Both the position numbers and the translations under genes were made by a program. Under the pieces are notes generated by a model, which was given only the letters and a program-made list of their open reading frames with translations, was not told the DNA's origin and did not search any database. This document shows, one piece after another, positions 1 through 16,600 of a DNA stretch of 64,000 nt. The stretch comes from Candidatus Eremiobacteria bacterium (GTDB lineage: Bacteria; Vulcanimicrobiota; Vulcanimicrobiia; Vulcanimicrobiales; Vulcanimicrobiaceae). The first letter of the stretch is position 1. Each line of letters begins with the position of its first letter. The stretch spans positions 1,888,001 to 1,952,000 of the forward strand of contig CAVTRC010000001.1 of the NCBI GenBank assembly GCA_963737065.1, given 5' to 3'.

Positions 1-351
1 GCGAAACGGCCCCCAGCCAGTTGTCAACTCGGAGCCCAGAAAGAAATTTCGCCAGACGGGCATGAGCGCCACGAGCGCGAGATCTTGATAGACGGTCGCG
101 ATACCGAACGCTTTGGCCTCGCGAGGAGACGACAGACGAACTTCAGCCCCGTCGACGCATAAGACGCCCGTGTCATGCGGATGCAAACCAGAGACGATCT
201 TGATTAACGTTGATTTCCCTGCGCCGTTGTCTCCAAGGATGCAGGTAACTTCTCCACGCCTCACCGTTAAACTGACGCCATCAAGCGCGCGAACGTTCCC
301 GTAATATTTGCAGAGATCGGTCAGCTTAACGATTGCGGCCGGCGCGCTCAT
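1..351 (-). CDS. Sugar ABC transporter ATP-binding protein (runs off window edge)
   Basis: Not in ORF track; manual translation from ATG at 351: MSAPAAIVKLTDLCKYYGNVRALDGVSL...GDNGAGKSTLIK (Walker A)...GIATVYQDLAL; ATGA overlap with permease stop. Confidence 0.9.
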   Translation of the reverse strand, partial: MSAPAAIVKLTDLCKYYGNVRALDGVSLTVRRGEVTCILGDNGAGKSTLIKIVSGLHPHDTGVLCVDGAEVRLSSPREAKAFGIATVYQDLALVALMPVWRNFFLGSELTTGWGPFR

Positions 352-1391
352 TTGCGGTCCACCTGATAGCGCACGAGCATGTTTACGAGCGTCGCGAGTA
401 ATAGCATCGCGCCGAGAAAGAATTTAAACCAATCGGGATTCCAACCGGCATACACGACACCTTGGCTCACGACGCCGAAGATCAGCGCGCCTATTGCGGC
501 GCCGATGACGGAGCCATAGCCACCGGTCAATAGACAACCGCCGACCACGGCGGCCACAATGTATTCCAGTTCGAGGCCCACGCCGCCGCCGGATTGCACG
601 GTGTTGTAGGCAAACAGCTGATGCATGCCGGCGATCCACGCGCAGAATCCGACGGTCATAAAAAGCGCGACTTTCATTCGCTTGACCGGAACACCGGCCG
701 CGCGCGCGCTTGCCGCATTACCACCGACCGCAAATACCCAGTTGCCGGCTGTCGTCCTTAGGAGGACCCACGTGCCTAACGCTACAAGGGCGAGCCACCA
801 TATGATGCTGACGTTTACGTCTACGCCGCCGAACGTAAGCGTCGATGCGAAAAACGCCTTCGCCGAATCAAATCCCGCCATGTTCGAGATGTCGTTCGTA
901 GCGACGTTCCCGCTTATAAGGCGCGTGATCGCAAGATTTATGCCTTGAAGCATGAGAAACGTCCCGAGCGTTACCAAAAAACTTGGTAAGCCGGTACGAA
1001 TCAGCATCCAGCCATTGAACGCGCCGATGGCGAGGGAAAGCGCCAAGCCGACAGCGACGCCGATCCACACGTTGGCATTGAATTGATACGCGAACATCGA
1101 TGCGCACAAGGCCGAAGTGATAACCGCGACGCCCGCGGAAAGATCGAATTCACCGCCGATCATAAGCAGTGCTACGCCGACCGCCATGATGCCGAGCGTG
1201 CCACTTTGGTAGAGCACGGTGCTGATGGACGCAGGATGGCGAATTGCGGGCGCAGTGATTCCAAAAAAGATAATTACCGCGACGGCTCCGATCAGCGAGC
1301 CGACTTCCGGTCTTGCAAGAAAGGTCCGAACAGCAGAACGGTGAGCTGACCGTTTGCGAAGCGGCGCGGACGGTGCAGCGGTCGAATTCAT
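348..1391 (-). CDS. Sugar (inositol-type) ABC transporter permease
   Basis: GGEFDLS and GGCLLTGGYGS motifs, multiple hydrophobic segments; ATGA-coupled to neighbours. Confidence 0.92.
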   Translation of the reverse strand: MNSTAAPSAPLRKRSAHRSAVRTFLARPEVGSLIGAVAVIIFFGITAPAIRHPASISTVLYQSGTLGIMAVGVALLMIGGEFDLSAGVAVITSALCASMFAYQFNANVWIGVAVGLALSLAIGAFNGWMLIRTGLPSFLVTLGTFLMLQGINLAITRLISGNVATNDISNMAGFDSAKAFFASTLTFGGVDVNVSIIWWLALVALGTWVLLRTTAGNWVFAVGGNAASARAAGVPVKRMKVALFMTVGFCAWIAGMHQLFAYNTVQSGGGVGLELEYIVAAVVGGCLLTGGYGSVIGAAIGALIFGVVSQGVVYAGWNPDWFKFFLGAMLLLATLVNMLVRYQVDRK

Positions 1392-2347
1392 CGCGTCCCC
1401 TTCTCCGCGAACCGTGCAATCGCGCTGATGTTATGCGAGTCGATGAATGCTGGACCGGTAAGTATCGGTTGGCCGCCACCAATCACGTCGCCGTTGGTTA
1501 CCAACAGCCACAGCGCATCGACCGCTTCGTAGCCCTGTAGGTACGGCTGCTGGTCGATGGCCCAACGGACGCTTCCGTGTTGAATCGCCGCGACGAGTTG
1601 TTTGTTCGTGTCGAACGTGACGATTCTCGCGCCGCTGCGTGCAGCCTGTCCTGCGTCAACTGCAGTAAGCGCGATGGGCGCACCGAGCGTCACAATATAG
1701 TCGATACTCGGGTCCTGTTGAAGCTTCGCGGTAATCGTCGAACGGACGGACGGCATGTCCGCGCCGTTGACGTAAATTTTCTCGCTGCGCCCCTTCGTAA
1801 GACCATCTTGCACGCCCTGGCATCGTGCTTCCAGTTGAACCTGTCCCTGCGATTGAATCACGCAAAGCACATGCCTAGCGCCTTCACGGCTCAACCGCGT
1901 GCCGGCTGCGCGCCCGGCGAGCAGTTCGTCTTGTCCGATGTACATCGGGATGCCGAGCCGCTTCCATGCGCCAAAGCCGGCGTTGAACGCGATAACCGCA
2001 ATGCCCGCGGCTTGTGCGCGCCTGACGGCGCTTCCTAGTGCGTCGGGCGTCGCAAGGGTCAGCGCTATGCCGTCCACATGCTGATCGATCGCATTCTGAA
2101 CGAGCACAGCTTGCCCGTTAGCGTTCTGGTCGTTGGAATAGATAAGATCCACGTTGTCATTCGCAGCTGCCGCTTCCGCGCCGCGCCGGATGATGTCCCA
2201 GAACGTGTCTCCCGGAGGTTGGTGCGTAATCATCGCGATTCTCAGGCGAGGCGCGTTGACCGCGCCACCGGGCCGTCCGCGCGCGCCTCCCGTGCTGCTA
2301 CAACCGAATAACAGCAACAAACAAACCACGGCGGCGACATGTTTCAT
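1388..2347 (-). CDS. Sugar ABC transporter substrate-binding lipoprotein (inositol-type)
   Basis: Lipobox-like LLFGC; GDTFWDII and AIDQQPYLQGY motifs of periplasmic sugar-binding proteins; iol context. Confidence 0.88.
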   Translation of the reverse strand: MKHVAAVVCLLLLFGCSSTGGARGRPGGAVNAPRLRIAMITHQPPGDTFWDIIRRGAEAAAANDNVDLIYSNDQNANGQAVLVQNAIDQHVDGIALTLATPDALGSAVRRAQAAGIAVIAFNAGFGAWKRLGIPMYIGQDELLAGRAAGTRLSREGARHVLCVIQSQGQVQLEARCQGVQDGLTKGRSEKIYVNGADMPSVRSTITAKLQQDPSIDYIVTLGAPIALTAVDAGQAARSGARIVTFDTNKQLVAAIQHGSVRWAIDQQPYLQGYEAVDALWLLVTNGDVIGGGQPILTGPAFIDSHNISAIARFAEKGTR

Positions 2348-3420
2348 GTCGCAACGCCCACGTATTTCAGCACGGCGTCTCCAAATTTGCTCGTTGTGAG
2401 CGGTGAGTCGCTTGCGCGCGCAATATCGGACGTTCGCAAACCGTCACACACGACGCGTTCTACTGCGTATTCTATGCGTGATGCGGACGCATCATCGTTC
2501 AGACTGTATCGCAGCAGTAGCGCGGCAGAAAGAATCGCTCCGATTGGATTCGCGATGCCTCGTCCGGCGATGTCCGGAGCCGTGCCGCCGATCGGCTCGT
2601 ACAGTCCGAACGTTCCCCCTTGCGGACCCGCCCGGACGCTCGCGCTCGGCAAGTTGCCGATTGAGCCGCTGAGAATCGCAGCTTCGTCGGATAGAATATC
2701 GCCGAACATGTTTTCTGTAACGATAACGTCGAAATCGCGCGGCCTGCGCACGAGTTGCATCGAAGCGTTATCGACAAGAAGGTGAGTCAATTCGACGCTC
2801 GGATACTCGCGTGCGACTTCGTTGACGACCTCCCGCCAGAGCCGAGACGTCGCCAAGATGTTATATTTGTCGACGGAGGTAACGTGCTTACGCCGTTGCA
2901 TCGCAAGGTCGAAGGCGACCCGTGCAACGCGCTCCACTTCCTCTTCGCTGTATGACATCGTGTCGACCGCGCATCGCTTGCCTGCGGCATCGACTCTGCG
3001 TTCTTTGGGCCTACCGAAATAGATGCCTCCCGTCAGCTCGCGCACGACGATAAGATCCAAACCCTCTACGAGTTCCGTACGAAGGCTTGACGATCGTTCG
3101 AGTCCTGAGTACACGCGCACCGGACGAAGATTCGCGAAGAGTTCGTAATCATAGCGCAATTCGAACAGCGCGGCTTCTGGACGACGCTCGAAGTCAACAC
3201 CATCGAACAGCGGGTCTCCGACAGATCCGAAAAGAATTGCATCGCTACGTCTGCATAGCGCATCGGTGTCGCTCGGAAGTGGCGGAAGCCCCATGCGAAG
3301 CGCGGCCGCACCAACGGGCGCTTCAACACATTCGATGTCCGGGCGCACGCGCTGCAAAACGCGCACAGCCTCCGCCACGATTTCGGGGCCAATTCCATCT
3401 CCGGGCAACACGGCAATCAT
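2344..3420 (-). CDS. LeuB-like beta-decarboxylating dehydrogenase (isopropylmalate/D-malate/tartrate family)
   Basis: PGDGIGPE, VRELTGGIYFG, ENMFGDILSDEA, APDIAG..ANP motifs; no leuA/C/D nearby, so leuB symbol withheld. Confidence 0.85.
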   Translation of the reverse strand: MIAVLPGDGIGPEIVAEAVRVLQRVRPDIECVEAPVGAAALRMGLPPLPSDTDALCRRSDAILFGSVGDPLFDGVDFERRPEAALFELRYDYELFANLRPVRVYSGLERSSSLRTELVEGLDLIVVRELTGGIYFGRPKERRVDAAGKRCAVDTMSYSEEEVERVARVAFDLAMQRRKHVTSVDKYNILATSRLWREVVNEVAREYPSVELTHLLVDNASMQLVRRPRDFDVIVTENMFGDILSDEAAILSGSIGNLPSASVRAGPQGGTFGLYEPIGGTAPDIAGRGIANPIGAILSAALLLRYSLNDDASASRIEYAVERVVCDGLRTSDIARASDSPLTTSKFGDAVLKYVGVAT

Positions 3421-4346
3421 ACGGTAGCGACCATATTCCGCACGCGTTGCGCGATGTGTTCGGCACTGAGGCCGTACTTGCGCAACAATTCATCATTAGG
3501 ACCGCTCTCGCCGTCGACGTCCATCAATCCGATACGCTCGATATGTGCCGGATAACGCTCGGCGAGCACCTCGGCTACGGCACCTCCGAGTCCGCCGTAT
3601 ATCGAGTGCTCCTCGCACGTGAGCAATCGCGGGATTGAGCGCGCGAATCGCACGACGGCTTCGGCATCGAGGGGTTTGATCGTCGGAACGTGCAGCACGG
3701 CAACGTGCACGCCTTCCTGCGAGAGCATTTCCGCCGCTTGAAGCGAGCGCACCGTCTGCCCGCCGGTTGCAATGATCCCCACGTCGCGGCCTTCCCGCAG
3801 CACACGGGTCCGGCCGATCGAGAAACCGTCATGTGGATTTGTCGCCGACGCAACCGGGTCGCGTAACAAGCGCATGTAGACCGGGCCATCATACGCTGTC
3901 GCTGCGACAATAGCTGCGCGCGCCTCGTGCGCGTCACACGGAGCTACGACCAGCATATGCGGTAGACTTCGCATGATTGCTATGTCGTTTACCACTTGAT
4001 GTGTCTTACCAGTGTATCCGGTTAAAATGCCGCTGTAGTGCGCCGCCAGCTTCACATTTAGGCGCGGCTGCGCCACGACGACGCGAACCTGATCCAGATC
4101 TCGTGTCGCCAAGAACGCTGCGAAGGAGCTAACCCACGGAATGAGTCCAGCCGTTGCCATTCCAGCCGCCACGCCAATCAGATTTTGTTCGGCGATCCCA
4201 AGCATGTAGAACGATTCGGGCGCGCGTAAGGCGACTTGGTCGGCCTTGGTGGAGTTCGCGAGATCGCCGTCTAGCACTACGACCCGCCGATCGGTCTTAC
4301 ATAGATCGACCAGTGTATTTCCGAACACGTCGCGCTGCGCGTTCAT
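3417..4346 (-). CDS. Split transketolase, C-terminal subunit
   Basis: GIAEQNLIGVAAG, TIKPLD, EEHSIYGGLG; start placed at ATG 4346 overlapping upstream stop. Confidence 0.92.
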   Translation of the reverse strand: MNAQRDVFGNTLVDLCKTDRRVVVLDGDLANSTKADQVALRAPESFYMLGIAEQNLIGVAAGMATAGLIPWVSSFAAFLATRDLDQVRVVVAQPRLNVKLAAHYSGILTGYTGKTHQVVNDIAIMRSLPHMLVVAPCDAHEARAAIVAATAYDGPVYMRLLRDPVASATNPHDGFSIGRTRVLREGRDVGIIATGGQTVRSLQAAEMLSQEGVHVAVLHVPTIKPLDAEAVVRFARSIPRLLTCEEHSIYGGLGGAVAEVLAERYPAHIERIGLMDVDGESGPNDELLRKYGLSAEHIAQRVRNMVATV

Positions 4347-5176
4347 GTCAGCTCGGCCAACGCGCGCGACACTTCGTCGGCCGACAGCGGCCGCGAGTGC
4401 CACGTGAGGTCATTCTCCATGAAGGAGACGCCTTTGCCCTTGACCGTCGATGCGATGATCATCGAAGGTAAGCCGCGTTGCGATGACGCGCGTTTGCAGG
4501 CATCGACGAACGCGTCAATATCGTGCCCGTCGCATTCAATGACGTTCCAGCCGAACGCTTCCCATTTCGAGCGCGGATTCGGCGCCGGATCGCGTCGCAC
4601 CATCGAAGCATATCCCTCGTCCGTCGCCCAGCCGTACTGCTGCAGGCGATTCCAGTCGAGAATTGCTGTCAAGTTGTCCAGACTGTAGCGAGCTGCTGTA
4701 AACGCCGCTTCCCACACTTGTCCTTCTTGTGTTTCACCGTCTCCGAGCATGACCCACGTTCGATAGCCTTTGCCCAAACGGCGGCCGGCAAGCGCCATTC
4801 CAATGCCGGGCGACAGCCCTTGACCGAGCGATCCCGTCGACATATCGAGCCCCGGAAGCTTGCTCATGTCAGGATGGCCTTGCAGACGTGAGTCGATCGC
4901 ATCGAACGTTTCAAGCTCGACAACCGGAAAGTAACCGCGCAGTGCAAGCGTTGCATACAAGCCAATAGCACAGTGGCCTTTTGAAAGAATGAATCGATCG
5001 CGATCGGGGCCGTAGGGCTGTGCTGGATCGATATTAAGTACGTCGAAGTACAGCGCCGCAAGCATGTCGGCTGCTGAAAGCGCGCCGCCGATATGACCTG
5101 CGCCGGCGAAATGCACGGCCTGCAAGACCTCGCGTCGTATCCGGTTGCCGATATCCTGGAGCGTTTGCGCATTCAT
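4343..5176 (-). CDS. Split transketolase, N-terminal (TPP-binding) subunit
   Basis: GHIGG, DRFILSKGH, STGSLGQG, GDGE..EG..WEA, TVKGKG. Confidence 0.93.
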   Translation of the reverse strand: MNAQTLQDIGNRIRREVLQAVHFAGAGHIGGALSAADMLAALYFDVLNIDPAQPYGPDRDRFILSKGHCAIGLYATLALRGYFPVVELETFDAIDSRLQGHPDMSKLPGLDMSTGSLGQGLSPGIGMALAGRRLGKGYRTWVMLGDGETQEGQVWEAAFTAARYSLDNLTAILDWNRLQQYGWATDEGYASMVRRDPAPNPRSKWEAFGWNVIECDGHDIDAFVDACKRASSQRGLPSMIIASTVKGKGVSFMENDLTWHSRPLSADEVSRALAELT

Positions 5177-6051
5177 AATTGAAACCGCTCGCGCAGGTAC
5201 TCGCGGTTCGCTTTGGCGCAGGCGAACGGTTCGCGCGGTGCATCTTGCTCTACTATGATCCAGCCATCATAATGAGCCTCGCGGAGCGCGTCGACGATGC
5301 TGGGAATCGATACGACGCCCGTTCCCAATTCGACGAACATCCCAATACGGACGGCTTCAACGAAATCAAGACGCTCGCTCCGAACGCGTTCCAGCGTCGC
5401 GCCGTCGATGTCTTTGAGATGCACGTACCCGATTCGCGTTCGATAGTCGCTGAAAAGTTGCTCGGGATCCGAGCCGCCGTACGCGATATGGCCGGTGTCC
5501 GGGCATAGCATGAGGAGTGCAGGATCGGTGAGCTCGCACAATCGGTCGATTTCCTCGCGCGTTTCGACGTACGTGCCGACGTGCGGATGAAAAACGGCAC
5601 TCATCCCACGCTGCTGCAACGCGTCGCCGATGCGGTGTAACCCTTCGGCCATCGTCCGCCAAGCGCGCTCGCCCAGCATATCGTCGCGGCGGGCGCGCCC
5701 GGCGACGCGAATGCGTTCTGGTGATACTTCATCGGAAAGGATCAATACATGCGAGCCGACGCTCTGCAAACGGTCGGCGACGCGTATGCTGCTCGCTAAC
5801 GCGGCTTCATGATTTGCTTCGTCACGCACGTTAACCGCATGAAACGATGCAGCCGGCGCGAGATCGCGGGCGCGCAGCTCGCGTGCAATTGCGTGTGAGT
5901 CGTTTGGGAAATTATAGCTGATTTCCGTGCCTTCGTACCCGGCCTGCGCCATTTCGTCGAGCATCTGCTCGAAGCTCGGCGTACGGACCCACGTGTAGAG
6001 TGGATCAAAGCCCCAGTTCACGGAAGCAGTCCCAATGCGCATCGTGTTCAC
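5173..6051 (-). CDS. iolE: Myo-inosose-2 dehydratase-like TIM barrel (sugar phosphate isomerase/epimerase family)
   Basis: FHPHVGT..ET, PDTGH, VHLKD, ELGTG, WIIVEQD; adjacent to iolB/iolG; start GTG 6051 or ATG 6042. Confidence 0.75.
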   Translation of the reverse strand: MNTMRIGTASVNWGFDPLYTWVRTPSFEQMLDEMAQAGYEGTEISYNFPNDSHAIARELRARDLAPAASFHAVNVRDEANHEAALASSIRVADRLQSVGSHVLILSDEVSPERIRVAGRARRDDMLGERAWRTMAEGLHRIGDALQQRGMSAVFHPHVGTYVETREEIDRLCELTDPALLMLCPDTGHIAYGGSDPEQLFSDYRTRIGYVHLKDIDGATLERVRSERLDFVEAVRIGMFVELGTGVVSIPSIVDALREAHYDGWIIVEQDAPREPFACAKANREYLRERFQL

Positions 6052-6857
6052 CACGCCCACCCTTGTCGAATCCATTCATGCTGCGGATCAAACGTCATGT
6101 GATAGATGTGTTTGGGGCCGGCCAAGACATTCAAATAGTAAATGGCATATTCAGGAGCCGCTGCACAAACGTGATATCCGCGCGGAACGAGGACGATGTC
6201 GCGGTCGCGCGCAGCAATCGTCTCGTCGACGTCGCCTTCCGCCGTGTACACGCGCTGAAACGCAAAACCACACTCAGGTCGCGCTCGATAATAGTACAAT
6301 TCTTCGAGTGCCGATTCGTGCGGCGGATCGTCCTTGTCGTGCTTGTGTGGCGGATAGCTGGACCAATGTCCAGGTGGTGTGAGAACCTCTGTGATAAAGA
6401 GCGTTGATGCCGCCTCTGGGTCCATCAAAATGTCGTAGATGCGGCGCGATGCATTTCCCGTTCCACGATCGTGGGCGTCGGTTTCGTTCAGCGCAATCAG
6501 CCGTGCTGCGTGCGTGCCGCGCGCTTGTGCCGAGCAGATCGCGATCTCGCAGTCGCCACGCGCGCTCAACTTGTACGCCGTTGTTTGCGGAAGATACACG
6601 GCTTGTGGAGGGCCGTCGAACGGAGAGCGCCGTTCGCCGACGCGCTGCCAAGATGCGTGATCGCTCGTCACGTCGGCGGTTCCCTCGATAAACACGAGAA
6701 CCGCTTCATTGCCGCCCGTTTCCGCGGAGTATGAGCTGCCCTTCGCGAGCCGGACGATTTTAAAGTCTATGTACTTCCAGTCGTCGCCGTGTGGTGCGAC
6801 GGAGGCGATGACTCGGTCATCCGTACCGCGGGATCGCACGAGGAGGCTGCTTGTCAC
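6048..6857 (-). CDS. iolB: 5-deoxy-glucuronate isomerase
   Basis: WSSYPPHKHD, LEELYY, VPRGYH, YYLNVLAGP signature. Confidence 0.93.
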   Translation of the reverse strand: MTSSLLVRSRGTDDRVIASVAPHGDDWKYIDFKIVRLAKGSSYSAETGGNEAVLVFIEGTADVTSDHASWQRVGERRSPFDGPPQAVYLPQTTAYKLSARGDCEIAICSAQARGTHAARLIALNETDAHDRGTGNASRRIYDILMDPEAASTLFITEVLTPPGHWSSYPPHKHDKDDPPHESALEELYYYRARPECGFAFQRVYTAEGDVDETIAARDRDIVLVPRGYHVCAAAPEYAIYYLNVLAGPKHIYHMTFDPQHEWIRQGWAW

Positions 6858-6860
6858 CGT

Positions 6861-7877
6861 CTACGCGGCCTCGATGTCGGCCATTTTTACGGCGCAGCCG
6901 CTTTCCCGCGATTGATCCGCGGCGACTGCGATGCGCAGCGCTTCCAAAGCGTCGCGGCCGCCGACACGTGGACGTCCGTCCGCAGCAACGACGTCGATGA
7001 AGTCTTCGATTTCCGCGCGGTATGCATCCGAGAATCGTGTGAGAAACGAGTCGGTTTGGCGCGTTGCAAACGACGCGCCTAAGACGCGGCCGTTCTGCAT
7101 TTGCTCTGCGCCGGTCAGCAGTATCCCACGCGATCCATGGATCTCCGTGCGCACGTCATAGCCGTAGATCGCTTCACGCGATACATCCACAACCGCGATG
7201 GCACCGTTCGAGAAACGCAGCAACGCAACCGCCGTATCGACGTCGCCCGCTTCGCCGATCTCCCGTGCAATGGTCGCGCTTCCGGTCGCCGTTACCTCGA
7301 CGACTTCCGCGGGCTCGAGCAGCCAGCGCGCCGCATCGAAATCGTGAATCATCTGGTCTTTGAATTGACCTCCGCTCGTGGGAATGTACGCGATCGGCGG
7401 AAGGCAGCGATCGCGGCTGACGAGGCGAAGAAAACGGATGTCACCCACGGCGCCCGATCCGATAGCGTTGCGTGCGCTCAAAAAATCTCGATCAAAGCGG
7501 CGTTGAAAACCGATCTGCAGAATTACGCCCGCCTCCTCGCATGCGAGTATTGAGTTCAACGTCGCGCCGATATCGAGCGATATCGGCTTCTCGCAAAAAA
7601 TGTGCTTGCCGGCCGTCGCAGCGCTTGCGATCAGTTCTGCATGCGTCGGACTCGACGTCGCAATGACCACGGCGTCGATGTCGCGATCCCGCAAGAACGC
7701 TTCGATACTGTCCGCTTTGCCTTTGCCCATCGACGAAACGAGGCGCTGCGCAGCATCGCGATCGACATCGGCAACGCCTGCGAGCTCTGCTCGCGGGCTG
7801 AGCGATACCGCACGCGCGTGCGCTGCGCCCATGCGTCCTGCACCGAACACTGCAATGACAGGCCGCCCGCCGCGCAC
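6861..7877 (-). CDS. iolG: Inositol 2-dehydrogenase (Gfo/Idh/MocA)
   Basis: GAGRMG, CEKP, IGFQRRFD, SGGQFKDQMIHDFD, YGYDVRTE. Confidence 0.88.
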   Translation of the reverse strand: MRGGRPVIAVFGAGRMGAAHARAVSLSPRAELAGVADVDRDAAQRLVSSMGKGKADSIEAFLRDRDIDAVVIATSSPTHAELIASAATAGKHIFCEKPISLDIGATLNSILACEEAGVILQIGFQRRFDRDFLSARNAIGSGAVGDIRFLRLVSRDRCLPPIAYIPTSGGQFKDQMIHDFDAARWLLEPAEVVEVTATGSATIAREIGEAGDVDTAVALLRFSNGAIAVVDVSREAIYGYDVRTEIHGSRGILLTGAEQMQNGRVLGASFATRQTDSFLTRFSDAYRAEIEDFIDVVAADGRPRVGGRDALEALRIAVAADQSRESGCAVKMADIEAA

Positions 7878-9685
7878 TACGTCAGCGCCTCTTGCGTGCG
7901 CGCAGCTTCATACTCGGCGCGCTTTTCACCGTGGTAAGCGGGAACCGTGACGTCCCACCATCCGGTCGTCGTGAGTCCGCTCTCGGGCAACTCGCGGCTG
8001 CACAATGCTTCGACGACCGCTGGACGCTCCGACGCGAAGGCACGCCGCAGCGCATCTGCGAGCTGCGCCGGTTCCTCAACGCGCTCTGCATGGCAGCCGA
8101 AACCTTCCGCAATCTGCGCTAGATTAGCGGAGAACGGGCTGCCGTCGCGCTTCTTGAAGTTCGTTGCGATAACGCGATCTGGGCCAAACTGCAACGTCTG
8201 CAAATTCTTGATGCACTCCCAGCCGTAGTTATTCATTACGAGGAAGACGGCCGGTACATCGTATTGCGCAGCCATCGCCAATTCCTGAACCGTCTGCAGA
8301 AAGCTGCCGTCGCCGACGATTGCGAGCACTTGCCGGTTCGGCGCCGCCAGTTTGGCACCGATTGCACCTGGCACCTCAAAGCCCATCGCCGAAAATCCGC
8401 CCGGCGTGATGTGCTGACGGCTTCCGTACACGGGAAACTCGGTGAATACTTGGCTTTGCGGATTGCCTGCGCCGGTAACTACAATCCCGTCGCGTTCGAG
8501 AACCTGCCGCGCGACAACAAGCGCTCGGGAGATCGTCATCGGATTGGCGTTGCTCTCTCGCATCGGTCGCAACGCTTCTTGCCACTCGTTCTTCAGGCTC
8601 TGAATGCGCTCGAAATACGCAGTAGAGCGGTACGCCCGCGGAGCCGACAACTCGTGCAGCGACGACAGCAAATCGTCGAGCGTGGCGCGTGCATCACCGA
8701 CGATGCCGACTTCTACCGGATAGTTCTTGCCGATCTCATACGGGTCGAGATCGATTTGTATGAGTTTTGTCGGTGGAATGTTGAAGGTGATCCCGCGCCT
8801 AAATGAAGATGTGGTGCGGTCCGTGAACCGGCAGCCGACCGCGAGCACGACGTCAGCTTCGCGCGCTAGCGTGTTGCCGGAAATCGAGCCGAGGTCGCCG
8901 CAGGGCCAAGCATACAGATCGTGGTCCTCGGGTATCGCGCCTTTTCCCATCCATGTAACCGTCACGGGGGCGCCTAGAAACTCCGCCAGTAGCCGCAGCG
9001 CCGGCTCGGCGCTCGACGAGATCACGCCGCCGCCCGCCAAAATCATGGGACGCTCTGCGCTCAACAGCAGCTGTGCCGCCTCCTCCACCGCCTTTGGATC
9101 GCCGTGCGAACGGCCGCGCGGGCGGCGTGCGACGGGATCCGGGAGTGCGTCGATCTCTGCGAATTCGGCTTGCACATCCATTGGGATATCGATGTGTGCG
9201 GGCCCACGCCGCCCCTCGAGCATGACGTTGAACGCAAGATGCAATACGTTGGGCAGCTGATCTACTCGACTGGGCTGCCACCACCGTTTGACGATGGGCT
9301 CCATCAGCCGCGGAAAGTTGGCCCAGTGCGTGCGTTCGAGTTCTTGCAGCACGCCGCGTCCGCGCATGTACGTGTGAACCGAACCGGTGAGAAGAAGCAA
9401 CGGCATCGAATCGACGTAGGCGCACGCCACGCCCATTGCGGTATTTACTGCACCCGGCCCGATGGACGTGAAAACGCCGCACGGTTTAGCGGCGACGCGG
9501 TAATACGCGTCCGCCATGTGCGCTGCGCCTTGCTCGTGAATCGCTTGGATTACCGCGATATCATCGCGCCTGTCGACGAATGCATCGAGGAGTGCGGTAA
9601 TGCCGTGACCGGGAACGCCAAACACCATCGGCACGCCTTCTCGGATGAGATATTCTGCGACGATTTGCCCCCCGGTCATTCGCAT
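7877..9685 (-). CDS. TPP-dependent enzyme, divergent IolD-like ring hydrolase
   Basis: ALS-fold motifs (HEQ, GDGS..NN) plus IolD-like GHG, TSIGPG, VLQELE, DVQAE and C-terminal WWDV; iol context. Confidence 0.72.
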   Translation of the reverse strand: MRMTGGQIVAEYLIREGVPMVFGVPGHGITALLDAFVDRRDDIAVIQAIHEQGAAHMADAYYRVAAKPCGVFTSIGPGAVNTAMGVACAYVDSMPLLLLTGSVHTYMRGRGVLQELERTHWANFPRLMEPIVKRWWQPSRVDQLPNVLHLAFNVMLEGRRGPAHIDIPMDVQAEFAEIDALPDPVARRPRGRSHGDPKAVEEAAQLLLSAERPMILAGGGVISSSAEPALRLLAEFLGAPVTVTWMGKGAIPEDHDLYAWPCGDLGSISGNTLAREADVVLAVGCRFTDRTTSSFRRGITFNIPPTKLIQIDLDPYEIGKNYPVEVGIVGDARATLDDLLSSLHELSAPRAYRSTAYFERIQSLKNEWQEALRPMRESNANPMTISRALVVARQVLERDGIVVTGAGNPQSQVFTEFPVYGSRQHITPGGFSAMGFEVPGAIGAKLAAPNRQVLAIVGDGSFLQTVQELAMAAQYDVPAVFLVMNNYGWECIKNLQTLQFGPDRVIATNFKKRDGSPFSANLAQIAEGFGCHAERVEEPAQLADALRRAFASERPAVVEALCSRELPESGLTTTGWWDVTVPAYHGEKRAEYEAARTQEALT

Positions 9686-9700
9686 CTGTCGTCTACCTCT

Positions 9701-10489
9701 CTATGTAAGCGCGCCGGCCGCGGCCTGGACGTATCCGAGTTGCGCGGAGATGGTTTGTGCCGCAGCGCAAATGCAAAGCGCGACGTCGGGGATGCGGTCG
9801 CGCGTGAGGCGTACGGCGGGCGAAGAGATTCCAAACGACGCGATCACAAGGCCGGTGTGGTCCCTCACGGGCGCGGCGATGCAGCGAACACCGGGATGCA
9901 GCTCCTCTTCATCGACGGCGTACCCGACGCGACGCACGCGCGCTAAGTCTTTGTCCAACTCGTCGACGCTCGTCATGGTATGCGGCGTAAACCGCCTCAG
10001 CGGGGACGTCCCAAGGAGTTCGACTAATTGAACGTATGTGAAGTCGGTAAGCAGCGCTTTGCCGATCGCCGTACAGTACAGCGGTTCCGCGGTGCCGATC
10101 GTAGTCTCTACGCGCAAAATGCCCGTAGCAGATTGCGCTGCGACGGAGACTGCAGATTGCCGTTCGCGAACCGCAACATGCGTGTTTTCGCCCGTCTCGA
10201 GAGCAATCTCTCGCAAATGCGACTGCGCTATCTCCACGACGCTGAGCCGGCGCAGCAGGGCTGACGCAATCTCCAGGATGCCGTATCCGACGGAATACTT
10301 TTTCGTCTCGCTATGCTGCATGGCGAACCCGTGAGTTTCTAAGGTCGCAAGCAGCCGGTACGCGGTGCTCGGATCGACGTTCAGCCGTTCCGCAATTTCG
10401 GTGACGCCGGCACCTGCCGGCTGCTCGGCGAGCAAACGCAAGATGTTCAAGCCTCGTGACAACGAGTTGATGAGAGTGGGACCAGCCAT
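9701..10489 (-). CDS. IclR family transcriptional regulator
   Basis: SLSRGL..L HTH, STAYRLLATL, TAIGKALL, GVRCIAAPV; likely start ATG 10489. Confidence 0.93.
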   Translation of the reverse strand: MAGPTLINSLSRGLNILRLLAEQPAGAGVTEIAERLNVDPSTAYRLLATLETHGFAMQHSETKKYSVGYGILEIASALLRRLSVVEIAQSHLREIALETGENTHVAVRERQSAVSVAAQSATGILRVETTIGTAEPLYCTAIGKALLTDFTYVQLVELLGTSPLRRFTPHTMTSVDELDKDLARVRRVGYAVDEEELHPGVRCIAAPVRDHTGLVIASFGISSPAVRLTRDRIPDVALCICAAAQTISAQLGYVQAAAGALT

Positions 10490-10495
10490 TCTTTC

Positions 10496-10593
10496 AATGT
10501 GGCATCTTATTGCACTATCGTCAAGGAGCGCTCTCATACGAAGCTAGGTCTCTCGATAATTATGCAAGGCCATTGACAATTTTGCAATTGCAT
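10496..10593. promoter_or_regulatory. Divergent promoter region with paired candidate operators
   Basis: Minus strand TTGACG-N17-CACATT ends 6 nt before iclR ATG; plus strand TTGACA at 10573; 21-mers 10504-10524(-) and 10573-10593(+) are 15/21 identical. Confidence 0.55.
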
Positions 10594-10639
10594 GGGTGAA
10601 TGATTCCCGTAGCCCGCTTCCAGGGCGGAGGTACGACTG

Positions 10640-13345
10640 ATGGACACTTGCAGCAGAATCTGCTCGCGTACCGCTCTTCTCGCGATCTTTTTCGTTGCGC
10701 CGGCGCTGATTTGCGCGCCGGTCAGCGCGCAGACGGCAAACTCGCCCGTCAGCGCGCAGACGCCAAACTCGCCCAAATATACGATAAGCGGCACGGTCGT
10801 TGACCAGCAGAGCTCCTTGCCGATTTCCGACGCTCGTCTAACGCTCGTCGAAGGAAACGCAACGATCGCTACAACGCGCTCGGATATATCCGGCGCGTTC
10901 AAGTTCCCCGCGGTTTCCCCGGCACTATACAACATTCTCATCACTGCCGCGGGACATGAGAGCGGGCGTTCTGACGATATTGCGCTCGCGGGCGGTCCCG
11001 CGACCGTTTCGCTCGTACTCGCACCAAGTACGACGGCGAATACCGGAAACTCACTCAAAACGATCGCACACGTCACGACTCGTGCGGGCGGCCTACAAAC
11101 CACGACGACGATTCAGCAGCAAATCGACCCGAACATTATCCAAAACCAAGGGAACCTGCGCGTGGCGGAATCCCTCGGCAAATTGCCGGGCGTAAACATG
11201 GTGGGGTCGGACTCGGCAATCGGCGACGACATTTCGGTCGACATTCGCGGATTAAAGCCTAGTGAGACGCAAGTATTGCTTGACGGGCATCCGATCGGAC
11301 CGATCGGTGTGTATCCTGCGCGCATCGGCGGCGGAACCGGCGGCTACGACTATCAGGTTTCACCGACCTTCGCGCTGCAGAACATTCAAGTCGTGTATGG
11401 TTCCGGTGCTACGGGACTGTACGGCGTCGATGCGGTAGGCGGCGCGGTCGATTTCCAGACGCTGAACCCGTCACTTCGCCCATCAGGCACGCTGAAGATC
11501 GGTACAGGGATGCTCGGTAAACAACTTTCGGCCGTGCAGACAGCGGGCACGTCGGGGAAGTTTGCCTGGGTTCTGCTGCACGGCGTCACCGGTGCTTACG
11601 GTAATTTCCCTGGCGCTGTTATTCCGCAAACCGGCCTTCGGGGGACGGACTTTACGTCTGCGACATACAGCGGCGTCACGTACTGGGTTGGCGGCGACTA
11701 CGTTCTGCGCAACGATCTCGGCAAGATACAGTATGCGTTCTCACCTGCCACCACGCTAAGTTTTACCGGATATTCAGCCACGTCGCGCGACGATAAGACG
11801 GGCGAAGGTGACAACGACTTCATCACGCCGGACTATGCGACCTATCAAGCGCAGCAGAACACAAACTGCAGCACGCCTTCCGGTGTAGCGGGTATTAAGG
11901 TTATGGTCGACTCCGGGAGCGCGTGCTACACGCCGCAACAGTATGGGCAAGGCGCGAGCGGACCAGCGGGCGGCGGCCCTGGCGCCTTTCAAGCCCTGGC
12001 GAATCAAGATTACCATGCGCGACTGACTACAAGCGCGGGTCGTAATCAAATCGTGCTGGATTCGTACATTGACAACTACAGCCAGAACCGCGAACGCCCG
12101 GAGTCGTTTGTCAACGGTCCGCTGTCGATATTGAACGTGACGTATCGTTCGATCGGCTCACTGCTTAGCGACGACATCGCCTTTTCAAAGAACGACGTGG
12201 GATTCGGCGCGTTCTCAATGCGTCAGTATACGAACGGCCAAAATATCAGCGGCACAAACGTGATCCCGCATGCTCCGATATTCGATAAACTGGACAGCTT
12301 CTTCGTGCGCGACGTATACGAGCCGGGCGGCCACTTATCGTTTTTCTTGAATTCGTGGCTGAAACACTCGAACGTCGGCGGCAATTCGTTCGATCCTCGT
12401 TTGTCGATCATATACCGGCCGACGTTGTCGGACGTATTTCGACTCACCGGGGGGAAATCGTCCGCGGATCCGGCCCCGCTCGCTCCACAGCTGACCGGTA
12501 TCGGAGGCATCACTCCGGGCAACTGCAAGCTAATTTCTGTAGGCGAAGCGCAGTCTCCGAACGAACTGCCCGAACGCGCAAGCGACCTAGAAGCATCATA
12601 CGCGCACCATTTCACGGCGGATACCAACATACAGTTGGTTGCGTATGATACGAATGAAATAAACACGATTTTCCAAGGACAAGAACCCGCCGCCGACTTC
12701 CTGGACTTCATAAATCAGGCCGGCGCGAACTACCTGCCTAGCGTGTTTGCGAAGATAACACAGCTTTGTCCTAGCTTCCAACCGCCGAATCCCGGCCCGA
12801 CGATCGCGAATCTCGTCGTCAACACCAATTTGAACCTCGCTCGTGAGCGCGCTCGCGGACTGGAGTTGAGCGGCCGCATGCGAATCACCCCGCATCTCGC
12901 AATCGACGGCTACTATGATCTGCAGTCTGCCATGATTTTCGACGCGCCTCAATCCCTCTTGACCAGTAACGTGACGCTGATAAACGGCTCGCAACTTCCG
13001 GAGATTCCGCTTCATAAGTTCGGACTCGCAGTCGACATTACGAACACTCATGGCGCAGAAATCTATATTGACTACACGCATCTCGATAGTAACAACTCGT
13101 TCAATCGCCCCGCCTTCGGATGGGCCGACGCAATGTTGACGCAGAGCGTATCCAAGCAATTGTCCTTGAATCTCGGCATCACTAACGTGTTCAATTCTGC
13201 AGTCGACAACTACGGACGGATCGGCTGGGGAGTATACGTACCGGAAAATGAATACGGAACAGATGCAAACGCTCTCGCGCAAGGGACAGAGCGCTTCGGT
13301 CTTTTGCCGACGGCCGTAACGTTTTCGCTGACTGAAAAATTCTGA
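10640..13345 (+). CDS. TonB-dependent receptor
   Basis: Signal peptide, carboxypeptidase-regulatory-like N-domain, plug motifs (LPGV, IRG, LLDGHP, YG..A.GG.V), NVFN and C-terminal Phe; GGAGG RBS. Confidence 0.85.
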   Translation: MDTCSRICSRTALLAIFFVAPALICAPVSAQTANSPVSAQTPNSPKYTISGTVVDQQSSLPISDARLTLVEGNATIATTRSDISGAFKFPAVSPALYNILITAAGHESGRSDDIALAGGPATVSLVLAPSTTANTGNSLKTIAHVTTRAGGLQTTTTIQQQIDPNIIQNQGNLRVAESLGKLPGVNMVGSDSAIGDDISVDIRGLKPSETQVLLDGHPIGPIGVYPARIGGGTGGYDYQVSPTFALQNIQVVYGSGATGLYGVDAVGGAVDFQTLNPSLRPSGTLKIGTGMLGKQLSAVQTAGTSGKFAWVLLHGVTGAYGNFPGAVIPQTGLRGTDFTSATYSGVTYWVGGDYVLRNDLGKIQYAFSPATTLSFTGYSATSRDDKTGEGDNDFITPDYATYQAQQNTNCSTPSGVAGIKVMVDSGSACYTPQQYGQGASGPAGGGPGAFQALANQDYHARLTTSAGRNQIVLDSYIDNYSQNRERPESFVNGPLSILNVTYRSIGSLLSDDIAFSKNDVGFGAFSMRQYTNGQNISGTNVIPHAPIFDKLDSFFVRDVYEPGGHLSFFLNSWLKHSNVGGNSFDPRLSIIYRPTLSDVFRLTGGKSSADPAPLAPQLTGIGGITPGNCKLISVGEAQSPNELPERASDLEASYAHHFTADTNIQLVAYDTNEINTIFQGQEPAADFLDFINQAGANYLPSVFAKITQLCPSFQPPNPGPTIANLVVNTNLNLARERARGLELSGRMRITPHLAIDGYYDLQSAMIFDAPQSLLTSNVTLINGSQLPEIPLHKFGLAVDITNTHGAEIYIDYTHLDSNNSFNRPAFGWADAMLTQSVSKQLSLNLGITNVFNSAVDNYGRIGWGVYVPENEYGTDANALAQGTERFGLLPTAVTFSLTEKF
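10721..10774 (+). repeat. 27-bp in-frame tandem duplication (VSAQT[A/P]NSP x2)
   Basis: gtcagcgcgcagacggcaaactcgccc / gtcagcgcgcagacgccaaactcgccc, one mismatch. Confidence 0.9.
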
Positions 13346-15040
13346 TGCGATGGGTGTACGTCTCGCTGGCCGCGACGCTCAGCGTCGCGGCCGCCTTCCT
13401 TTTCCCGCCAAGCGCGACACCGTCGCCGAACCCCGCGCAGGTCACGCTCGTTCGCCAACGCATCAAACACGTTTTTATCATCTACCAAGAAAACGAGTCG
13501 TTTGACCATTACTTCGGCAGCTACCCGGGTGCCGACAACCTTGCAACGATATCGGCTGCGTTTCATGGCTTCCGTCAGTACGATCCAATCGCGCGCGCGT
13601 GGACGACGCCGTTTCGGATAACGGATCCGGACGTCGAAAGCCCGGATCATTCGAGACGCGCACTTATCGCTAAAATGCACGGTGGGAAAATGGACCGGTA
13701 CGTCGCGGTTCAGGAACAATCATCGGCGAAAGATGGCTATACGTCGGCAGATCAGGAGCGGCTGGGACAGACTCACGATGTCCTATTACGACTGCGACAC
13801 GATACCGTTTTTATGGAAATACGCTCGCGCATTCACGCTTTGGGATCACTTCTTTCAAGCCATGACCGCGCCGTCCACGCCTGGCAACATCGAAGTAATC
13901 GCTGCGCAGAGCGGACAGACGCAAGCCGCTCGCGATTCACACCTTGTCGTTGCAAAGGACGGCTCGGGTGCCGGCGTGCCAGTCGAAAACAGCATGGATC
14001 CTCCGTTTGGTCCGTATCCGGGACCCGCTCCGGCTAAAACACAGATCGTGCAGCGGTATGCCACGGTGATGCTCACGCTCAACGGCCGCGACAATGTTAA
14101 AGCACGCGTCGACCTGCGCGGCGTTCGCGAAGACGTGCACGAGCTTGCCGAAAGTGGAAGAATGTCCGTTCCGTGGGGATGGTATCAGGAAGGATACAAC
14201 GGTCCCGAACGACGAGCACTAAAAGGATACTCGGCGCACCACAACGCGTTGCAGTACTTTGCGTACTTGCGGCATAATGACGTCTTTTGGAATCACGTGT
14301 ATCCGTTAAAGGATCTATTGCGCGCAGTGCGCGGCGGCACGTTGCCGCATCGCGGCGCTTTTTACATCAAAGGTGGAAACCTTAACCGCTTCGGATGGCG
14401 CCCTGCAAACCGTTCGCCGTTCATCCAGCGCAACTTTCTCGGCGACGATGACCATCCGGGAACAGGCGACTCGGATCGACAAGTTGCCGAGTCGTTCGTG
14501 GCTACGTTTGTTAACGCTGTTGCGCGAAGCCGGTACTGGAATGATTCGGCTATTATTATTACGTGGGACGATTCCGGTGGGTTTTTCGACCACGCTCCGT
14601 CCCCGAGTTTCGAACGTTGCTGGGACGGCTATCCATGTGGCGACGGTCCACGAGTGCCGCTCATCGTGATTTCACCGTTCGCGCGGTCGCATGCGGTTGT
14701 TCACGACAGCGCGGACACTGCATCAGTCGTGCGCTTTCTCGAAACAGTGTTCAGTCTTTCCCCGCTCGCAACGCTCCCGAACGAGCGGCGCTTCATGCCG
14801 GAGGGGCCGCGCGACACAAACGCGCGCTTATCTAACTTATTGTCAGCGTTCGATCGGGAACGCCTTACGGCGAAACGACCGGCTATTCCAGCGGCGGCGG
14901 CGATCGTACCTGATGCGGTTGTCGATCGTTTCCCGGCAGCGATGAATTGCAGCAGCCTCGGCATACGGCCACAGCGCATCCCCGGCAGGAATACGCCACC
15001 GGCTGGTTTCCATGGCCTGCCGAAGCAATTGCTCCCATAA
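13345..15040 (+). CDS. Secreted phosphoesterase, phospholipase C/acid phosphatase family (frameshift near 13765)
   Basis: IKHVFIIYQENESFDHYFG in first ORF; DDDHP, ITWDDSGGFFDH, GPRVPLIVISPF in second ORF. Confidence 0.85.
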
Positions 15041-15054
15041 CGAGGACCTACTTC

Positions 15055-16446
15055 ATGAGCACCATCGCTTCGGCGAACGTGATCACGACCGTAAACCCTG
15101 CAACTGGGTCACCTCTTTCCGAATACGAGGTCAACGGGGCAGCCGAGATCGATAAGCGGCTCGACGCCGCGCATGACGCGTTCATGGAATGGCGAAATAC
15201 TCCAATGGAGACGCGTCAAGCGCTGTTGCAGGCCCTGGCCGCGCATTTCCGCGCAAAGCGTTCGGAATACGGGCGGTTGATCACCCTTGAGATGGGAAAG
15301 GCGATCATCGAATCGGAAGCCGAAATTGAGAAATGCGCCTGGGCCTGCGAATACTATGCGGCGAACGCGCCGACGCAGGTTGCACCCGAAGCTATCTCAA
15401 CGGCGGCCGTTCGCAGTTATTCCGCATACCGCCCGCTGGGCGTAGTCCTTGCGATTATGCCGTGGAATTTTCCGTTCTTCCAAGTCGTTCGGTTTGCCGT
15501 TCCGGCTATCGCAGTGGGAAACGCCGCGGTGTTAAAGCACGCCGCCAATGTAACGGGCTGCGCCTTGGCGCTCCAGCAAGCATTTGAATATGCCGGCTTT
15601 CCTCGTCGGCTTTTCACCACTCTCGTCATTCGGGCGAATCAAGTCGCATCGATCATCGCCGACCAGCGGATTGCAGCCGTAACGTTTACGGGAAGCGACG
15701 GCGCGGGATCCGACGTTGCGGCGGTAGCGGGTAAGCACGTAAAAAAGAGCGTCCTCGAGCTTGGCGGATCCGACGCATTTATCGTTCTCGCGGACGCGGA
15801 TGTGGAGACGGCGGCGAAGACCGCCGTGCGCGCGCGTTTTCAAAATTGCGGGCAAAGCTGTATCGCGGCGAAGCGCTTCATCGTCCATGACTCGGTACAC
15901 GAGTCGTTCTGCGAGCGATTCGTTCACTACGCGCGGGAGATCGTGGTTGGCGATCCACTGGAACGCGCCACAACAATGGGCCCGCTAGCGCGACCTGATT
16001 TGGTCGACGAGTTGCAGCGGCAAGTTTCCGTGTCTCTGTCGCTCGGTGCAACGGCCGTCCTTGGCGGTACGCGTATACCTGGCGCGGGCGCGTTTTACGA
16101 GCCCACCATTCTGAAAGGCGTTCTGCCGGATATGCCCGTTTCCCGGGAAGAGACGTTCGGTCCGGCTGCGGCGGTCCTTAAAGCACGCGATGAAAACGAG
16201 GCGGTTGATCTGGCCAATGCATCGGTATTCGGATTAGGAAATAGCGTTTGGAGTCGCGATCTCGACCGCGCCGAGCGGATCGCCGCGCGCTTGCAATCCG
16301 GCCTGGTCTTCGTCAACAGCATGACCGCGTCCGACCCGCGTTTGCCGTTCGGCGGAGTGAAGCGCAGCGGCTATGGGCGCGAGCTCGCGCAGTTCGGCAT
16401 ACGCGAATTTGCAAATGTACAAACCGTTTCCGTCGCCGGCTCATAA
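15055..16446 (+). CDS. NAD(P)-dependent aldehyde dehydrogenase, succinate-semialdehyde dehydrogenase-like
   Basis: IMPWNFP, FTGS, LELGGSD, GQSCIAAKRF, EETFGP, PFGGVKRSGYGRE; GAGGA RBS before ATG 15055. Confidence 0.92.
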   Translation: MSTIASANVITTVNPATGSPLSEYEVNGAAEIDKRLDAAHDAFMEWRNTPMETRQALLQALAAHFRAKRSEYGRLITLEMGKAIIESEAEIEKCAWACEYYAANAPTQVAPEAISTAAVRSYSAYRPLGVVLAIMPWNFPFFQVVRFAVPAIAVGNAAVLKHAANVTGCALALQQAFEYAGFPRRLFTTLVIRANQVASIIADQRIAAVTFTGSDGAGSDVAAVAGKHVKKSVLELGGSDAFIVLADADVETAAKTAVRARFQNCGQSCIAAKRFIVHDSVHESFCERFVHYAREIVVGDPLERATTMGPLARPDLVDELQRQVSVSLSLGATAVLGGTRIPGAGAFYEPTILKGVLPDMPVSREETFGPAAAVLKARDENEAVDLANASVFGLGNSVWSRDLDRAERIAARLQSGLVFVNSMTASDPRLPFGGVKRSGYGRELAQFGIREFANVQTVSVAGS

Positions 16447-16600
16447 AGAGGTGGTGCGCGTGACGAACGCCGCCAACCGCATCGCCGTGCAGTAAACGGG
16501 ACGTTGACGCGCGTGACAAGCAGCCGCTTTCTATGGATAAACGGGCGCAACCGCGTATACTTTGTAGGTGTCGCGACGTTAGATCACGGAAGGCTTTCGC

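Follow-up and report, generated by a model that had tools for sequence, protein, structure and literature searches.

We describe a catabolic operon of the inositol type that contains a two-subunit transketolase (TK) and is accompanied, in the DNA around it, by no gene for the kinase IolC or the aldolase IolJ. The operon lies in a stretch of 64,000 nucleotides from a soil bacterium, Candidatus Eremiobacteria bacterium (positions 1,888,001 to 1,952,000 of contig CAVTRC010000001.1), and this whole stretch is called the window below. The gene arrangement is real and conserved. It is best explained by a transketolase-dependent lower branch of inositol catabolism, an explanation to which we give about an even chance. 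Its core, that the transketolase replaces IolC and IolJ, we regard as likely; the full chain of reactions, through D-malate and the LeuB-type dehydrogenase of the operon, falls slightly short of even. We are probably dealing with a variant of inositol catabolism for which we found no description: within open-access PMC and bioRxiv texts no transketolase step in inositol breakdown was found, in line with a preliminary description of this DNA whose author knew of none for inositol. In the accessible part of PMC7736159, transketolase and iol proteins appear only as separate proteome entries.

In the proposed route the ATP-binding cassette (ABC) transporter would import inositol, and IolG, an IolE-like protein, a thiamine diphosphate (TPP) enzyme resembling acetolactate synthase (ALS) and IolB would convert it to 2-deoxy-5-keto-D-gluconate (DKG), as judged from their family assignments. 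Instead of phosphorylation by IolC and cleavage by IolJ, the split transketolase would take unphosphorylated DKG as ketol donor and pass its C6-C5 ketol to an aldose phosphate of central metabolism, for example to glyceraldehyde 3-phosphate, giving xylulose 5-phosphate. The C4 remainder would be (3R)-3-hydroxy-4-oxobutanoate, or malate semialdehyde. An aldehyde dehydrogenase (ALDH) similar to succinate-semialdehyde dehydrogenase (SSADH) would turn this into D-malate, and the LeuB-type dehydrogenase would oxidatively decarboxylate D-malate to pyruvate and CO2. Such a route would spend no ATP.

The stereochemistry was worked by hand. Read from C6, DKG should present the D-threo ketol of xylulose and fructose that transketolases require, and oxidation of the C4 remainder should give (R)-malate, the configuration that enzymes of the LeuB family use. 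The argument made earlier from the D-threo ketol and the D-malate product therefore holds when worked in this way.

Inositol in soil, largely derived from phytate, is a major pool of carbon and phosphorus, and its bacterial breakdown is taught as one route ending in IolC, IolJ and IolA. The upper half of the canonical Bacillus subtilis pathway (IolG, IolE, IolD, IolB, IolC, IolJ, IolA) and the inositol-type ABC transporter have their likeness here. In contrast to that pathway, IolC, IolJ and IolA are not in the window, IolC and IolJ are not beside the clusters of relatives, a split transketolase takes their place, and the Eremiobacterota TPP enzyme is ALS-like.

The operon in the window

The window, which belongs to a contig of some 2.5 Mb, was studied through a listing of its open reading frames (ORFs) and family-model scans of these ORFs. 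The operon comprises 11 minus-strand genes, from an IclR-family regulator to the ATPase of an ABC transporter that runs to the window edge, and a divergent unit on the plus strand carries the ALDH.

1..351, minus strand: ABC transporter ATPase, N-terminal part, continuing off the window edge (PF00005, sugar-type ABC ATPase families)
348..1391, minus strand: ABC transporter permease (PF02653, 208 bits)
1388..2347, minus strand: periplasmic sugar-/inositol-type binding protein, SBP (PF13407)
2344..3420, minus strand: LeuB-type (3-isopropylmalate dehydrogenase family) dehydrogenase (TIGR00169 440 bits, cut-off 353)
3417..4346, minus strand: transketolase C-terminal subunit, TK-C, with Pyr and C domains (PF02779, PF02780)
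4343..5176, minus strand: transketolase N-terminal TPP-binding subunit, TK-N (PF00456, 172 bits)
5173..6075, start probably GTG at 6051, minus strand: IolE-like protein of xylose-isomerase fold/TIM barrel (TIGR04379 214 bits)
6048..6857, minus strand: IolB, 5-deoxy-glucuronate isomerase (TIGR04378 301 bits)
6861..7877, minus strand: IolG, inositol 2-dehydrogenase (TIGR04380 352 bits)
7877..9685, minus strand: ALS-like TPP enzyme in the IolD position (TIGR04377 332 bits; acetolactate synthase 392 bits)
9701..10537, minus strand: IclR-family regulator (PF09339, PF01614)
10538..10639, no strand: putative control region between the divergent units, containing the palindrome TTGCAATTGCA (10582-10592)
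10640..13345, plus strand: TonB-dependent outer-membrane receptor (Plug and CarboxypepD_reg domains)
13345..15040, plus strand: PF04185 phosphoesterase (acid phosphatase / phospholipase C family) in two frames (ORFs 13345-14037 and 13682-15040)
15055..16446, plus strand: SSADH-like ALDH (PF00171 450 bits; PRK09406 540 bits)

The operon is tightly packed. There are ATGA overlaps at six junctions (IolE/TK-N, TK-N/TK-C, TK-C/LeuB, LeuB/SBP, SBP/permease and permease/ATPase) and a GTGA overlap between IolB and IolE; the TPP enzyme and IolG overlap by 1 bp, and gaps of 3 and 15 bp separate IolG from IolB and IclR from the TPP enzyme. ORF listing, family scans and junction analysis all agree with the gene content and tight coupling given in the preliminary description. 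They also agree with its placing of the ALDH in a divergent unit, where the gene follows the TonB receptor and the phosphoesterase on the plus strand, with a likely start at ATG 15055, preceded by GAGGA and 15 bp past the phosphoesterase stop. The interval 2344-16446 named there encloses these genes and omits the transporter (1-2347), also a part of the operon.

The ORFs scanned over the 64 kb include neither a PfkB kinase nor a class II aldolase nor a methylmalonate-semialdehyde dehydrogenase (MMSDH), as the earlier claim that IolC, IolJ and IolA are missing from the window would have it. Sulfoquinovose and apiose catabolic genes were likewise not found in the window.

The IclR regulator probably controls both divergent units. 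The palindrome TTGCAATTGCA at 10582-10592 is perfect, occurs as a single exact copy in the window and overlaps a minus-strand promoter-like site (10587-10559). It is a candidate operator; copies with at most two mismatches number 19 in the window against 15.6 expected, no excess over chance. The two phosphoesterase ORFs match the N- and C-terminal parts of PF04185. Together, the receptor and the phosphoesterase may take up and dephosphorylate inositol phosphates or phosphoinositol compounds and in this way provide inositol.

Related loci and the transketolase

A genome scan with TK-N matched 596 stretches, of which 575 were confirmed and the best 80 retained. The nearest relatives among these 80 are two loci of Eremiobacterota metagenome-assembled genomes, L001 (73% identical) and L002 (75%). 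L001 has the gene order of the window (IclR, TPP enzyme, IolG, IolB, IolE, TK-N, TK-C, LeuB), with transporter and TonB receptor on the opposite strand. The order is the same in L002, with breaks in the genes for the TPP enzyme and TK-C, the 5' remainder of a LeuB gene directly after TK-C, and an IS3 transposase some 2.9 kb further downstream. In both loci IclR heads the operon and a TonB receptor homologue adjoins the iol-TK cluster (L001, 1-1737, 65% identical; L002, 55%). In L001 the receptor adjoins the transporter, and in L002 it is divergent from the iol-TK genes together with a PF04185 phosphoesterase (52-4489), as in the window.

Further relatives come from other phyla. L008, from the Chloroflexota like the three loci after it (Thermomicrobiales), carries the IolE-like gene, TK-N, TK-C, IolG (392 bits), IolB (323) and IolD (925), and then the contig ends. 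Three Chloroflexia loci, L011, L021 and L026, have the order LacI, IolD, IolE-like, TK-N; L011 and L021 go on with TK-C and an ABC transporter, and the contig of L026 stops within TK-N. IolD reaches 884-887 bits in L011 and L026 and is a frameshifted 307-bit fragment in L021. No IolB was found within these three loci, a relaxed search included. Small ORFs before IolD in them were considered as IolB and dropped as low-complexity.

A plasmid protein search with TK-C gave one close match, L081, on plasmid NZ_CP126261.1 of Curtobacterium sp. MCJR17_020. The island starts with an ABC transporter, a major facilitator superfamily transporter, LacI, Gfo, an isomerase and another Gfo. Then come iolG, an isomerase, iolB, iolD and an SSADH-type ALDH that overlaps iolD by 4 bp, and at the end stand two IclR genes, TK-N, TK-C, a PfkB kinase and a GTP-dependent phosphoenolpyruvate carboxykinase (PEPCK). 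Kinase and PEPCK (9981-12950) follow the transketolase in the same direction. By its match (195 bits) the kinase belongs to the 1-phosphofructokinase type, and it gives no IolC match; it could draw the sugar-phosphate product onward, and the PEPCK fits a product entering at the level of C4 acids or pyruvate. The transporter of the window is 60% (ATPase), 61% (permease) and 49% (binding protein) identical to its orthologue in the Curtobacterium island, and the best NCBIfam match of the window's binding protein is a rhizopine-catabolism binding protein (165 bits, under the cut-off of 420). The ABC ATPase has a single cassette of about 260-300 residues in L001 (1778-2570) and on the Curtobacterium plasmid (L082, 19720-20616); sugar ABC ATPases of the usual kind comprise two cassettes in some 500 residues. 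Two rhizobial plasmid transketolases, L083 and L084, were uninformative, being distant and placed in clusters of short-chain dehydrogenases/reductases and tripartite ATP-independent periplasmic (TRAP) transporters.

An IolC-type kinase or IolJ-type aldolase was not found within L001, L002, L008, L011, L021 or L026. The cross-genome comparison called for in the preliminary description, whether iolC stands beside iol clusters with a split transketolase, thus gives no case in these six loci or in L081, at the level of the locus. A further relative, L003, has neither IolC nor IolJ among its upstream genes, the sole part visible, as its contig stops just after TK-C.

In a phylogenetic tree (FastTree, LG+gamma, concatenated TK-N and TK-C, 79 sequences, 567 columns, Shimodaira-Hasegawa-like support) the transketolases of the window, L001, L002, L008, L011, L021, L081 and L003 form one clade with support 0.935. 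The clade reaches over Eremiobacterota, Chloroflexota and an Actinomycetota (Curtobacterium) plasmid, and L003, whose contig ends 185 bases past TK-C, is its sole member with no iol genes in view. It is resolved by the concatenated tree alone; with TK-N only, its support is 0.527.

To describe the substrate site, TK-C was aligned to human transketolase, from which the numbering is taken. The TPP- and metal-binding residues and catalytic histidines of a transketolase (EC 2.2.1.1) are present: TK-N retains the equivalents of human His37, His77, His110, Asp155, Asn185 and His258, and TK-C retains Glu366. Of the canonical sugar-phosphate site (Arg318, Ser345, His416, Asp424, Arg474), TK-C retains Arg318, Ser345 and Arg474; two residues are changed, His416 to Tyr and Asp424 to Thr, and Pro426 is changed to Lys. 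Counted from the ATG at 4346, the new residues are Tyr104, Thr112 and Lys114. We take His416 to be the phosphate-binding residue, and Asp424 to be the counterpart of yeast Asp477, which reads a substrate hydroxyl. Among 76 TK-C sequences, Tyr replaces the phosphate-binding His in 15 (window, L001-L004, L006-L013, L021 and L029). The Asp is lost in every one of these, and in 11 of them a Lys stands two positions further along. The other 61 all have the Asp, with His in 60 and Ser in one. The TK-C of L081 is likewise of the Tyr / no-Asp / Lys type, and TK-N has clade-specific changes at residues 92, 163, 180 and 181.

As far as sequences can tell, the transketolase is a dedicated iol-linked enzyme and not a chance neighbour; the split, dedicated transketolase of the preliminary description is upheld by seven iol-linked enzymes that, with L003, share one clade and a distinct pocket. 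We infer that an anionic group in this pocket would be bound nearer the reaction centre than in the case of sugar phosphates, which fits the carboxylate of DKG.

Sister transketolases with the Tyr/no-Asp signature are found in other catabolic clusters (L004, L009, L005 and L007), which suggests a wider family of acid-sugar transketolases. L004 (Paenibacillus, 7693-18352) combines LacI, a mandelate-racemase-type dehydratase, TK, an ALDH, two Zn-dependent dehydrogenases and a TRAP transporter. L009 (Salinicoccus, 5245-16394) has two Zn-dependent dehydrogenases, a TRAP transporter, TK, an Fe-dependent alcohol dehydrogenase and an ALDH, and in L005 and L007 (Chloroflexota) an EIIC-GAT permease of the phosphotransferase system precedes TK. 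Tentatively, and with less confidence than we place in the chain through D-malate, the iol-linked transketolase may be a branch of this wider family, whose substrate channel would be rebuilt by the change of His to Tyr, the lost Asp and the gained Lys. The family would cleave unphosphorylated carboxylate ketoses and, together with an ALDH, provide a general ATP-free shunt for inositol and other acid sugars in several phyla; here the shunt would give D-malate, on which a LeuB with a dual role in leucine synthesis and catabolism would act.

Transketolases of specialist pathways are known. AptAB is reportedly a split transketolase of an apiose pathway acting on a phosphorylated branched ketose (Carter et al. 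2018); it is alike in being a two-subunit transketolase within a specialist sugar catabolic cluster, and the window has no apiose genes. The nearest solved structure, the split transketolase of Carboxydothermus hydrogenoformans (PDB 6YAK/6YAJ; 267 bits for TK-N, 279 bits for TK-C), has the same two-chain architecture. It keeps the canonical Thr-His and Glu-Asp motif, whereas the window has His-Tyr and Tyr-Thr, and two residues after the Asp position it has Ala (Pro in human TK) where the window TK-C has Lys. The nearest functional analogue, likened by function and not by sequence, is SqwGH, a dedicated transketolase for a ketose with a non-phosphate anionic group; it splits this sulfonated sugar and hands the C2 unit on to glyceraldehyde 3-phosphate (PMC9594981). 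The substrate proposed for the window enzyme differs in bearing a carboxylate and deriving from inositol. It would go through a single round of cleavage because the C4 product has no second hydroxyl, and the window has no sulfoquinovose genes.

The enzymes proposed to deliver DKG are of graded certainty. IolB passes its model, TIGR04378, with 301 bits against a cut-off of 205, and IolG comes to 352.1 bits on TIGR04380, where the cut-off is 355. The IolE-like protein has TIGR04379 as its best match, at 214 bits (cut-off 290), and its TK-linked homologues in L001, L002, L008 and L026 score 202-220 bits on that model; it is presumed to be the inosose dehydratase. Its gene lies directly upstream of TK-N in seven of nine loci (window, L001, L002, L008, L011, L021, L026), the other two being L003 and L081. 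The TPP enzyme gets 332 bits on the IolD model TIGR04377, below the cut-off of 715, and scores higher on acetolactate synthase (392 bits). Of PDB entries, BbmA, ALS and glyoxylate carboligase match it best, with about 240 bits; cyclohexane-1,2-dione hydrolase comes to 197. It is only 28-31% identical to the canonical IolD of L008, L011, L026 and L081. By these scores it is ALS-like and not a canonical IolD. It is presumed to be a functional stand-in for IolD, the ring-opening hydrolase, because IolB needs the IolD product and canonical IolD holds the same place in related clusters (L008, L011 and L026, and as an annotated iolD in L081).

The two dehydrogenases of the lower branch

The LeuB-type gene sits between TK-C and the transporter and is coupled to both in translation. 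L001 preserves its junction with TK-C in spite of a relocated transporter, and a remnant of the gene is left in L002. As a wider proxy for linkage we looked for equal longest-contig sizes among the best 120 relatives each of LeuB-type, TK-C and ALDH; an equal size was taken to mean the same contig, and direct gene context comes from the window, L001 and L002. Apart from the window's own, 21 of the 120 LeuB matches share their longest-contig size with one of the best 120 TK-C matches. These include short contigs of 2282, 4472, 6525 and 6946 bp (chance expectation about 0.6 below 10 kb) and contigs of 16206, 29424, 67180, 71405 and 71837 bp (about 0.01 by chance for 10-100 kb). Among the 20 closest LeuB matches, 16 pair with TK-C and the remaining four are on contigs below 4 kb. 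For the ALDH, ten of the best 120 matches share a size with a TK-C match, among them 16206, 26340 and 67180 bp. The sizes 16206 and 67180 bp are common to all three proteins; from LeuB to ALDH the window spans 14.1 kb, which would fit into a contig of 16.2 kb.

The link of a LeuB-family enzyme to TK-C, as supposed in the preliminary description, is thus borne out by coupling, by L001 and by shared contig sizes. Its assignment as a D-malate enzyme does not fare as well, and several observations weigh against the last step. The protein passes the leuB equivalog model TIGR00169 (440 bits, cut-off 353) and does not reach the cut-off of the tartrate dehydrogenase/DmlA-type model TIGR02089 (222 bits against 470). 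E. coli DmlA, a decarboxylating D-malate/3-isopropylmalate dehydrogenase, belongs to the same superfamily (PF00180) and catalyses the reaction proposed for the last step, but the window protein is only 36% identical to it and 52% identical to E. coli LeuB. The best 120 relatives are 65-80% identical; the source names given are all 3-isopropylmalate dehydrogenase, and where an organism is named it mostly belongs to the Eremiobacterota. At the positions that we take, from structures of isopropylmalate dehydrogenase, to line the isopropyl pocket, there is one difference only: Leu-Leu is changed to Leu-Phe in all 120, and DmlA has Leu-Leu. No LeuB-type gene was found in L008, L011, L021, L026 or L081. 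Further, each contig size at the Mb scale appears once only among the best 120 LeuB matches, and 15 contigs of at least 100 kb, one of 1.5 Mb, carry this LeuB with no TK-C among the best 120 TK-C matches. Because of this single copy per Mb-scale contig and these 15 contigs, the LeuB-type protein may be the only or ordinary LeuB of the lineage, possibly serving both roles. The leucine-biosynthesis genes leuA, leuC and leuD were not found in the window or in L001.

A DmlA-like pocket signature was considered for the LeuB-type protein and rejected, as the Leu-to-Phe change is family-wide and DmlA is without it. In the Salinicoccus locus L009, two short out-of-frame LeuB-like stretches (13213-13645, 27-32% identity, combined E of about 9e-9) sit between TK-C and the genes for the Fe-dependent alcohol dehydrogenase and the ALDH, and may be a decayed gene of the Iso_dh family.

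The ALDH of the window is below the cut-offs of the SSADH models (PRK09406, 540 against 730 bits; TIGR01780, 338 against 646 bits). Its counterparts in other lineages also tell against the full chain, as they differ from it and are not orthologous. The ALDH of L081 is a TIGR01780-type SSADH, 34% identical to the GabD2-like enzyme of the window; its place directly after iolD speaks for the proposed route. In L021 an IolA-like MMSDH (376 bits on an incomplete ORF) lies beside IolG, and at the left edge of L011 there is a C-terminal ALDH fragment, assigned by PF00171 only, whose first 32 residues are 87.5% identical to the L021 MMSDH. Because of the IolA-like ALDH in L021, malonate semialdehyde may still form in Chloroflexia, or else each lineage may have taken on an ALDH of its own. 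From the earlier expectation that transketolase, LeuB-like and SSADH-like genes co-occur with iol genes, the transketolase stands, in three phyla; LeuB is confined to the Eremiobacterota loci, and the ALDHs are non-orthologous.

On the 3' side of the ALDH an HpnJ gene begins at 16601 (16601-18067, 758 bits, over the cut-off), and at 46784-48220 the window encodes an HpnA-like NAD-binding protein fused to DUF2867, hopanoid-associated like HpnJ. Split or incomplete genes occur outside the operon at 13345-15040, 18350-19057, 19508-20359, 22418-24425 and 28827-30552. In this order they are the phosphoesterase, a DprA fragment, a start-less gene like N-methyltryptophan oxidase, a gamma-glutamyltransferase in two ORFs and an FMN-dependent dehydrogenase in two pieces. 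Unlike these, each of the 11 iol-TK operon genes is intact. Indel errors of the assembly, or pseudogenes, may account for the breaks.

Alternative explanations and significance

One alternative keeps the transketolase in place of IolC and IolJ and changes what follows: the LeuB-type protein would be the LeuB of leucine biosynthesis that happens to sit in the Eremiobacterota operon, and the C4 product would go to lineage-specific enzymes. The scores on the leuB model, the identities to LeuB and DmlA, the pocket motif shared with relatives named 3-isopropylmalate dehydrogenase, the single copy per Mb-scale contig, the large contigs with no listed TK-C and the loci of other phyla, which do without the gene, all speak for it, as does a Liv-type amino-acid transporter downstream in L001. 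Set against this are the coupling on both sides, the junction kept in L001 despite the moved transporter with its remnant in L002, and contigs shared with TK-C down to 2282 bp; a biosynthetic gene in an IclR-controlled catabolic operon would also be oddly regulated. We think this alternative unlikely. A rather improbable one is the ordinary pathway, with iolC, iolJ and iolA at other places in the genome and an auxiliary or unrelated role for the transketolase, for example balancing pentose-phosphate flux. That the view covers 64 kb out of some 2.5 Mb of contig counts in its favour and against our explanation, and so does the IolA-like ALDH beside the iol genes of L021 with the related fragment at the edge of L011. 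However, the clade is tied to iol genes in three phyla, and IolC or IolJ stands beside iol genes in none of eight loci (L001, L002, the upstream part of L003, L008, L011, L021, L026 and L081). The transketolase has lost two canonical substrate-binding residues and is therefore not a standard pentose-phosphate enzyme.

The cluster could also degrade another cyclitol or an acid sugar, with a ketose different from DKG as donor of the transketolase. In favour of this, neither the TPP enzyme nor the IolE-like protein reaches the cut-off for IolD or IolE, no IolB was found in L011, L021 or L026, and the sister transketolases of L004 and L009 lie among genes for acid sugars (TRAP transporters, dehydratases, ALDH). 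Against our own explanation it also counts that the action of a transketolase on an unphosphorylated keto-acid sugar is proposed by analogy. On the other side, IolB is over its cut-off and IolG within 3 bits of its own, the same clade is accompanied by canonical IolD, IolG and IolB in L008 and by genes so annotated in L081, and by the established chemistry of the pathway DKG alone among the IolG/E/D/B intermediates has a free ketol for a transketolase. We hold another substrate to be slightly more improbable even than the ordinary pathway.

If the transketolase-dependent branch is correct, one ATP would be saved per inositol and two carbons would pass straight into sugar phosphates. The seemingly incomplete iol clusters of genome surveys would be explained. 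Further, this would be the third transketolase of specialist catabolism, after those for sulfoquinovose and apiose, and one that acts on a carboxylate-bearing sugar. The Tyr / no-Asp / Lys combination offers a residue signature for finding such transketolases, and with Curtobacterium a cultured strain with a plasmid-borne cluster is available in which the idea could be tested.

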